64,000 bases of DNA from a virus (Duplodnaviria > Caudoviricetes): positions 32,001-96,000 of the IMG/VR virus record IMGVR_UViG_3300031555_004524, one strand, 5' to 3'. The position numbers were made by a program, and so were the translations under genes. Below the pieces are notes generated by a model. The model was not told the DNA's origin. It did no database searches and saw only the letters and a program-made list of their open reading frames with translations. The stretch's first letter is position 1; each line of letters opens with the position of its first letter. This document shows positions 48,004-49,998 of this stretch, in pieces.

Positions 48004-48155
48004 CGTAAGTAATTATTATTTATTATAAATATCTAATAACACTTTCCCCCTTCATAGTCCCATCATGTATGAAACTCCACACTAAGTATATAATCTTAGT
48101 GGATCACTGTATACAGTGATCGGGGCTTAAGTTCCCGAATACGGTTTCGGTACAA
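48004..48155 (-). ncRNA. Putative TnpB omegaRNA scaffold (guide predicted from exon 2)
   Basis: Structured, GC-richer segment 3' of tnpB: GUACCGAA..UUCGGGAAC, AAGCCCC..GAAGGGGG, two internal hairpins. Confidence 0.6.
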
Positions 48156-48185
48156 TTATATCCGTAATATTTATTTAGATGAATA

Positions 48186-49448
48186 TTATACGAAATTTAA
48201 TGTAGGATAAATAGCTAAATTTTTAGCAGCATTATCATCTCGATTTATAACTAATCCACATACTGGGCATCTATATATTTTTCTAGCCCCAATATTATGA
48301 ATATTTCCACATGAACTGCATCTATTAGTAGATGGATATTTTTTATCAGCTCTAATTATAGGAATACCATGCATTTGGCATTTGTATACTATTATTTCTT
48401 GAACCTTATATAAGCAATGTTCAAGTATATTAGCATTATATGCTTGCTTAGCAGACATTGGTATTCTTGATGTATCTTTTATAAGCATATCTGAAACTTT
48501 TAAATCTTCAATAACAACAGCTTGAGGGTTTAGTGCTATTATATTATGAGATACATAATTATGAACTTCGTTCAGTTTTCTGTTATACTTTTTACGATAA
48601 TATTTATTTATTTTACAAATAGTTTTATCCATATTTTTCGTTCTAATACCATCACACTTCTTGAGTCTCGAAGCATTAATATTATACTGCCTATTTAATT
48701 TTGTTTGAAGTCTTTTTATTTTCTTGGACTCCTTATCAATATTAGGCAATTGTATTTTTATCCCATTTGAATCAACTATCCAATTTGTTTTACTACATCC
48801 TAAGTCAATTCCTATAGTATCACTATATGGACTATTTTCTATGATATTATGCATCTTATCATAGTTAGAAAAATTCATATTATCTGATTTTTTCATAGTA
48901 AAACTTAAATAGTAATTTTCACCATCAAATGTTATTCTTGGGTTATAATATTCTCTATATCTAGGATCATCTTTATATGTAGAACTTTTACCTATACAAT
49001 ATTCTTTTGGTATATGTCCACATAAAATAGTTCCAATTTTTTTAGAAATTTTAACTGAAGATTTTCCTATAGTTAATCTATCTGCTCTTATAGCCATACT
49101 TTGAGCTATAGATTTCTTAGATTTATATTTAGGATAATCGCATTTTTTAGCTAAATACATTTTGAATGCATTAACAGCATCCCATAATGCAATTTTCATA
49201 GTAGTTGAATCGTATTCCAATAACCATGAATTTTCTGGCTTATTTTTAAATTCAGTAAATAAATTATTTATATCGAATTGCGATAATATCTTATTCGTAT
49301 TTTTAAAATATTCACTTTCAATTTCTATTGCAAAATTGTAGATATATCTCATAATCCCAAAATATCTTTTTATAATATCTTTTTGTTCATCAGTTGGATA
49401 TAATTGTATTTTATTTCCTATATATTCAATATCACTCATATATTTCAC
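48186..49448 (-). CDS. tnpB: TnpB RNA-guided endonuclease (IS200/IS605/IS607 family); likely start ATG 49439
   Basis: N-terminal LYPTDEQ..FG..RYIYN; RuvC-I IGIDLG, RuvC-II VIEDL, Zn finger CSSC..CPVC, RuvC-III RDDNAAKN. Confidence 0.92.
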   Translation of the reverse strand: MKYMSDIEYIGNKIQLYPTDEQKDIIKRYFGIMRYIYNFAIEIESEYFKNTNKILSQFDINNLFTEFKNKPENSWLLEYDSTTMKIALWDAVNAFKMYLAKKCDYPKYKSKKSIAQSMAIRADRLTIGKSSVKISKKIGTILCGHIPKEYCIGKSSTYKDDPRYREYYNPRITFDGENYYLSFTMKKSDNMNFSNYDKMHNIIENSPYSDTIGIDLGCSKTNWIVDSNGIKIQLPNIDKESKKIKRLQTKLNRQYNINASRLKKCDGIRTKNMDKTICKINKYYRKKYNRKLNEVHNYVSHNIIALNPQAVVIEDLKVSDMLIKDTSRIPMSAKQAYNANILEHCLYKVQEIIVYKCQMHGIPIIRADKKYPSTNRCSSCGNIHNIGARKIYRCPVCGLVINRDDNAAKNLAIYPTLNFV

Positions 49449-49454
49449 CCTCCT

Positions 49455-49483
49455 TTCATAAAAATATTTTTTATGAAGTTGTT
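49455..49483 (-). promoter_or_regulatory. Intron-internal late promoter plus hairpin next to the tnpB RBS
   Basis: AACAACTTCATAA at 49483-49471; 10-bp hairpin TTCATAAAAA-ATA-TTTTTATGAA directly before AGGAGG. Confidence 0.55.
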
Positions 49484-49998
49484 AGGGTTGATATAAATAT
49501 ATAATATATTAGATATTTAATATTAAATTTATAATTACCTTATTTCATTATAATCGCAACTTATAATGCATGGTCAATTCCATGTCACTTCCATTACAGA
49601 ACGTGCGTAGATCATTTGTCCATCCGTTAATATTAACGGAGAGGTATTTTTCTTCCTCCTAGATCTATCATAGTAGATCTGCTTGAGGTTCTACATTAAG
49701 GCTTTCGCCGCCCCCGCCAGGGGCTGATCGTTGAACGTCTAACCATTAAGATTAGTTCGCTGCTAAAGATGGGCTTGTTATCGAATACTTAGGACTTATA
49801 TCATTCTAGACGATCAATAATATAAGCTTTTATTTCACCATATATTCATCCGTATTATATTTTTTCTGCTTTCGCAACCATCACGCTTATCTTTGCAGAT
49901 TACGTTGTGGAGAATACGGCTCTTAACCCACTTCCTAGCATTTAACTCCTTTGGAACACACCCATCACTGGATATGCTGTGAATTGCTGTTAAGCTAC

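Follow-up and report, generated by a model that had tools for sequence, protein, structure and literature searches.

A conserved, predicted long-range RNA helix overlaps the last omegaRNA hairpin of a putative tnpB-only IStron in a phage RNA polymerase gene

The window, that is, the whole 64,000-nt stretch of DNA that was analysed, derives from a 248-kb phage genome and carries on its minus strand an RNAP beta-like gene, the frame of which becomes unreadable from about 49998 and is readable again at 48002. Joining of the two coding parts (...AGA UUC GGU G + AA AUG GAA...) restores the conserved RFG/EMETG (the slash marks the junction) exactly in frame. The same RNAP beta site is found without insert in a relative, L002 (1-960), where it reads ...TTCGGCG AAATGGAG... 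and encodes PIRFGEMETEDF. Because exon joining restores this motif and the L002 site is uninterrupted, the intervening 1995 nt are assigned to an intron, the ends of which are ambiguous by 1 nt (49997..48003 or 49998..48004) since a G is repeated at both of them. The flank of the window element is GGUG/UAGCU across the junction, while some relatives show GGCG, with the same 1-nt boundary ambiguity; an exon ending in G followed by an intron starting with U fits this flank, and a 'GG-ending' site does not. Within P1 (49998-49940; alignment A1 columns 35-57), the penultimate nucleotide of the exon (U or C) changes in concert with an A or G of the intron guide sequence, the pair being UA in six family members and CG in the other six. 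Some 100 nt downstream of this empty site, the RNAP beta gene of L002 holds an IStron of its own (L002:2945). Together, L002 and the window element constitute a natural pair of empty and filled sites usable for homing tests. The features of the locus are collected in Table 1.

Table 1. Positions of the exons, RNA elements and coding region of the element in the window.
Feature	Position	Strand	Basis or remark
5' exon	49998..51780	(-)	Phage RNAP beta-like, Rpb2 domain 6 (PF00562, E 1.5e-14); end ...AGA UUC GGU G
5' splice site	49998/49997 (or 49999/49998)	(-)	Exon joining and reading frame
Group I ribozyme core, P1 to P9.2	49546..49997	(-)	RNAalifold and homology to CbISt3
P9.2 hairpin, loop GUUGCGA	49568-49546	(-)	RNAalifold consensus, family alignment
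GAAAUA motif	49546-49541	(-)	Directly after P9.2; 5' arm next
Joiner AAAUA (end of GAAAUA motif)	49541..49545	(-)	GAAAUR in family, GAAUAAG in CbISt3
5' arm of IR stem	49503..49540	(-)	Pairing; limits in the earlier note 49542-49507
AR9-type late-promoter-like motif AACA-N6-TAA	49471..49483	(-)	Consensus PMC5312081; start predicted near 49472
tnpB, 417 aa	48186..49439	(-)	Pfam HTH_OrfB_IS605, OrfB_IS605, Cas12f1-like TNB
omegaRNA scaffold (right end), 183 nt	48003..48185	(-)	Alignment A2
Nexus hairpin, PK-1 CCGUA	48144-48140	(-)	Co-variation with PK-2
3' arm of IR stem	48007..48043	(-)	Coincides with SL5; limits in the earlier note 48038-48006
SL5 hairpin	48043-48008	(-)	Folds locally in every family member
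PK-2 UACGG	48007-48003	(-)	Co-variation with PK-1
Terminal intron G	48003	(-)	End of ...UUACGG
3' exon	47569..48002	(-)	Reading frame and empty site in relative L002

The comparison set consists of eleven distinct relatives which, with the window element, make 12 family members; their TnpB homologs are 42-57% identical and lie on contigs of 190-273 kb. A search for related TnpB loci in viral and genome contigs found none. The host genes differ within the family, RNAP beta, gyrase B and a gyrase A/topoisomerase IV-like gene being among them, and the order of the parts is common: P9.2 with the loop GUUGCGA, GAAAUR, the 5' arm, tnpB and a 3' RNA ending in CGG, the terminal CGG being present in 12 of 12 members.

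On comparative grounds, the 5' RNA of the element is a group I, probably IA2-like, ribozyme homologous to that of CbISt3, and self-splicing is predicted. RNAalifold applied to the 5' region of 13 sequences returns 109 pairs, 60 of them with compensatory changes, P1 included. In the alignment with CbISt3, P7 is compensated (GAUCA/UGAUC versus GACUA/UAGUC) and conserved core blocks are also common to both; furthermore, CbISt3 and the window family share the P9.2 loop and a GAAUAA-type motif. In blastn comparisons, the ribozyme region finds its matches in Twort-like and Lactococcus phages, in stretches that look like introns and bear no annotation, and no match was obtained against plasmids, while an exact scan of viral contigs for the P9.2 motif gave chance matches in coding DNA only. 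Rfam, at both gathering and E-value thresholds, yields no group I intron match in the window or the 11 relatives. Model RF00028 likewise fails on the documented CbISt3 and on two intron-like loci of phages; since CbISt3 is missed too, the blank reflects limited sensitivity of the model and is no evidence against a ribozyme. For CbISt3 (phage c-st, AP008983 125950-128800, coordinates from the supplement of Tourasse 2014, PMC4227781), Rfam reports RAGATH-18 (61 bits) in the omegaRNA region and no group I match.

The coding region enclosed by the intron is readily recognized as tnpB. The OrfB_IS605 match is weak (26.7 bits vs a curated cut-off of 30.5), and the translation contains the motifs GIDLG, VIEDL, RDDNAAKN and CxxC...CxxC, corresponding to RuvC and a zinc-finger. 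No ORF for TnpA or an IS607-type serine recombinase is present between the ribozyme and tnpB or elsewhere inside the element, and the 248-kb genome yielded no further copy of tnpB. Downstream of tnpB, PK-1 and PK-2 co-vary across the family (CCGUAC/GUACGG, CCGAAU/AUUCGG, CCGCAC/GUGCGG). The locus thus comprises a TnpB-omegaRNA system, with a RuvC/zinc-finger TnpB of predicted nuclease activity and a pseudoknotted scaffold that ends at the element boundary. By analogy with TnpB biology (10.1101/2023.11.20.567912), the first ~16-20 nt of the 3' exon would act as the omegaRNA guide. Because the ribozyme is homologous to CbISt3 and the omegaRNA features are of the IS607 type, the element is classified, from its sequence, as a tnpB-only, group-B-like (IS607-type) IStron splitting the RNAP beta gene. 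The published IStron family includes members with ORF B alone, such as CsISt1 (PMC4227781).

The earlier note had proposed that a long, imperfect inverted repeat loops the whole tnpB-omegaRNA cassette out of the ribozyme. Its 36-nt string is the exact minus strand of 49542-49507, the partner at 48038-48006 is found as described, and the near-complementarity of the two is reproduced by RNAduplex (30 bp, -20.3 kcal/mol). The end of the 3' arm, placed there 2 nt before the terminal G, falls at 48006/48007, i.e., 2-3 nt before G48003. With the wider arms, 49540-49503 and 48007-48043, the duplex extends to 34 bp at about -21 kcal/mol and is composed of 29 A-U (85%), 2 G-C and 3 G·U pairs. It begins 5 nt downstream of P9.2, with GAAAUA in between, and ends 3 nt ahead of the terminal CGG. 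In minimum-free-energy folds of the full-length, ~2-kb RNA, the long-range helix is present in five of the five elements examined, although energy models for closing a ~1.4-kb loop are rough and take no account of folding during transcription, of ribosomes translating tnpB or of bound TnpB.

Comparison with the relatives shows that this pairing is maintained. In all 12 elements, the ~45 nt following GAAAUR pair with the final ~50 intron nucleotides, and the cognate duplexes comprise 25-39 bp with energies from -21.6 to -33.8 kcal/mol, while the arm sequences themselves are unlike between lineages. As the arms cannot be aligned between lineages, cognate and swapped arms were compared in place of a column-by-column co-variation analysis. 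Swapped arms reach a mean of only -12.7 (sd 5.7), and the cognate sum is attained in 0 of 100,000 permutations; the outer 14 nt and the inner part, when tested separately, each give 0 of 100,000 as well. The covariation in homologs that the earlier note had proposed to look for is therefore borne out, with co-varying arms and a helix kept in 12 of 12. Among the transition-type mismatches within the helices, G·U outnumbers A·C by 18 to 3. This excess suggests selection acting on the RNA of the minus strand and not on a DNA repeat, although the counts are not fully independent because the family members are related.

The 3' arm (48043-48007) coincides with SL5 (48043-48008), and U48007 also belongs to the pseudoknot strand. 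Since the 3' arm spans SL5 and abuts the pseudoknot, a splicing fold and a guide fold would be mutually exclusive; both the long-range helix and SL5 with its pseudoknot are conserved in the family. When the 5' arm is masked in the model, the fold loses 15 kcal/mol and SL5 forms; likewise, in a modelled transcript devoid of the 5' arm, SL5 and the other scaffold hairpins are predicted to fold. The proposed competition of the stem with omegaRNA folding is thus consistent with the identity of the 3' arm and SL5 and with the modelled energy difference of 15 kcal/mol between the alternative folds. It also agrees with experiments on CboIStron and CseIStron, in which the choice of splicing or guide RNA is decided by how stable SL5 is (PMC13521648).

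A further part of the original proposal was an internal promoter, the transcripts of which would lack the 5' arm. A motif conforming to the AR9 late-promoter consensus, AACA-N6-TA/G (PMC5312081), lies at 49483-49471, downstream of the 5' arm and 31 nt before the tnpB ATG, and a similar motif occurs 30-44 nt upstream of the tnpB ATG in nine of the 12 family members. Across the window, 14 of the 20 AACA-N6-TA[AG] sites lie 5-75 nt ahead of an ORF start, where 4.3% of positions are found (enrichment p about 2e-15), vs 1-3 sites for each of six control motifs; examples are located at 61625, 58120, 54388, 53342, 32682, 30121 and 11869 on the minus strand and at 61656 on the plus strand. The motif is informative only through its position relative to ORF starts, its raw count (AACA-N6-TAA) not being enriched (16 vs 25.5 expected). 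Because of this strong positioning, the phage probably uses AR9-type late promoters, and, given the conserved motif downstream of the 5' arm, the internal-promoter idea is plausible, the motif being a candidate start site for arm-less transcripts.

Other signals in the same region were inspected as well. A sigma-70 internal promoter was rejected, as the scan returned 16 sites vs 17.4 expected and the lone nearby site, 49577-49550, is unconserved. Between the late-promoter-like motif and the tnpB ribosome-binding site, a 10-bp hairpin (UUCAUAAAAA...UUUUUAUGAA) occupies 49477-49455; it is not obviously kept in the relatives. The AT-rich UAAUAUAUUAU at 49513-49501, which shares positions with the inner end of the 5' arm, is similar to a portion of the AR9 early consensus AAATATATATTAT. 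CbISt3 shows a TTGACA-17-TAATAT promoter-like site just downstream of its 5' IR arm.

Taken together, these data make it highly probable that the two arms form the 'IR stem' of a group-B-like IStron, which closes a loop for splicing and excludes the guide fold. In read-through RNAP-beta transcripts, the helix would close a loop of ~1.46 kb containing tnpB and most of the omegaRNA, and would bring the intron end, ...UUACGG, beside P9.2 and the catalytic core; with the intron end placed at the core, the second splicing step could rejoin the polymerase mRNA. The P9-type helix that the earlier note had invoked for returning the 3' splice site to the core thus corresponds to the published 'IR stem' (PMC4227781), its conservation and its recurrence in the folds being as described above. 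Because the 3' nucleotides also constitute SL5 and abut the pseudoknot strand, a single molecule would serve as a splicing substrate or as a guide RNA, never both. Transcripts from the internal late-type promoter would be limited to tnpB mRNA and guide RNA, since they would contain neither the ribozyme nor the 5' arm. The formation of the helix in vivo and its requirement for splicing are what the conserved pairing would predict.

Other explanations of the complementarity deserve consideration. In a window of ~29% G+C, where a repeat search lists 121 inverted pairs in 2.3 kb, two AT-rich segments could match by accident. Shuffled controls, which the earlier note had suggested, speak against this: none of 2000 dinucleotide shuffles of either arm reaches the observed energy (mean -7.4, sd 2.2, best -17.9). 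When the 5' arm is compared with every 33-mer of the 64-kb minus strand, its best partner is the 3' arm, the next unrelated segment reaching -16.9; in the reciprocal scan with 33- and 36-mers, the 3' arm finds the 5' arm first at -20.6, ahead of the next unrelated segment at -15.5. As the arms are mutual best partners in 64 kb and the pairing recurs at the equivalent place of 12 elements that differ in sequence, an origin by chance is practically excluded. The repeat could instead be a relic at the DNA level, with complementarity retained through binding of the same protein to both ends, or simply not yet decayed. In CboIStron, excision by TnpA depends on the right-end terminal 39 nt, a segment overlapping the 3' arm region. 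The functional left end of CboIStron is located at the 5' end of the ribozyme and not at an internal arm, however, and terminal inverted repeats are absent from IS607 and IS200/605 elements. Moreover, the element contains no tnpA, the 248-kb genome shows no second tnpB copy, the arms have diverged beyond alignment while retaining complementarity, and the excess of G·U over A·C is strand-specific, so that a DNA-level relic appears improbable.

It is also conceivable that the helix is a genuine RNA structure with its main role elsewhere, as a built-in antisense keeping the omegaRNA unfolded, an RNase III site or an insulator stabilising the tnpB message, and that splicing uses only its outer ~12 bp. 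With its 25-39 bp, the duplex would offer sufficient length for RNase III, and the inner part of the helix co-varies independently. In CboIStron, splicing needs only the terminal 18 nt of the right end, and the inner ~20 bp may for this reason be dispensable for catalysis. Cleavage of the 3' arm would nevertheless destroy SL5 and, therefore, the guide RNA, and another role would be compatible with loop closure. We assign a small likelihood to a main role outside splicing and retain the loop-closing IR stem as the preferred reading.

The closest documented structures are those of the group B IStrons, represented by BcISt1, CbISt1-4 (phages c-st and D-1873 included) and CsISt1 (PMC4227781). Tourasse, Stabell and Kolsto 2014 describe an AU-rich stem downstream of P9.2, formed by inverted repeats on either side of the IStron ORF region, and a GAAUAA-type motif as the start of the IS part; in group B, the stems measure 15-34 bp with over 80% A-U, and a local repeat upstream of the 3' arm can pair with that arm instead (PMC4227781). 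The stem of the window element similarly follows P9.2 and a GAAUAA-like motif directly, encloses the ORF, is AU-rich and is associated with a CGG end, and its 3' arm has a local pairing partner in SL5. At the corresponding position, CbISt3 of phage c-st has a perfect inverted repeat of 13 bp, and it ends in UAUCGG. In contrast to the group B IStrons, the present family has helices (25-39 bp) that reach or exceed the upper end of the published range and extend over all of SL5, its 5' flank reads GGUG or GGCG in place of a GG-ending site, and the window element is devoid of tnpA. The hosts differ as well, being uncultured phages with contigs of up to ~270 kb, in which essential genes (RNAP beta, gyrase) are hit.

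For CboIStron and CseIStron, published experiments show that splicing requires no more of the right end than its last 18 nt, that SL5 is the sole scaffold hairpin overlapping the intron structure, and that the stability of the SL5 base decides between splicing and DNA cleavage (10.1101/2023.11.20.567912; PMC13521648). The right end of the window element likewise acts as omegaRNA scaffold and as 3' intron portion at once, the nucleotides required for use of the 3' splice site lie within SL5 and PK-2, and the terminal CGG and the PK-1/PK-2 pseudoknot are shared. The 5' partner in the window is complementary to ~37 nt, in contrast to the 18 nt mapped in those studies, and tnpB is separated from the 5' arm by a stretch with a conserved motif of the phage late-promoter type. 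An internal promoter is not discussed in the sections considered of Tourasse 2014, Zedaveinyte 2023, and Mortman and Sternberg 2026.

In phage T4, the td intron with I-TevI is a group I intron that holds its ORF in a peripheral loop and has its own internal promoter. In AR9, g190 is located inside the g189 intron and is expressed from an intron-internal promoter (PMC5312081). The window element resembles both in having an ORF looped out by a peripheral helix and a candidate promoter inside the intron, and differs from them in its cargo, an RNA-guided nuclease with its guide RNA, the scaffold of which overlaps the loop-closing 3' strand.

Both the loop-closing helix and the antagonism between splicing and guide RNA are already published (Tourasse 2014; Zedaveinyte 2023; Mortman and Sternberg 2026), and the core idea is not new. 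What the locus adds is a new phage family of such elements, helices at or beyond the upper limit of the known lengths that cover all of SL5, co-variation at the RNA level and a conserved promoter-like motif; placed between tnpB and the 5' arm, this motif extends the published model in a testable way. It is possible, though rather doubtful, that the fate of giant-phage IStron RNA is set mainly by promoter choice and not by an equilibrium within a single transcript, such that the arm in read-through transcripts favours splicing and the late promoter gives arm-less guide and tnpB RNAs. If so, a ~37-nt 'anti-SL5' arm (25-39 bp in the family) would protect essential genes such as those of RNAP beta and gyrase, and RNA-guided homing would be confined to late infection.

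More generally, the 12 co-varying elements in essential genes form a natural series for a system studied so far in two clostridial elements. The variation in helix length, from 25-39 bp in this family to 13 bp in CbISt3, offers a test of how splicing and guide activity may be tuned, and the series shows that the loop-closing helix and the last hairpin of the guide RNA are both kept by selection at the RNA level.
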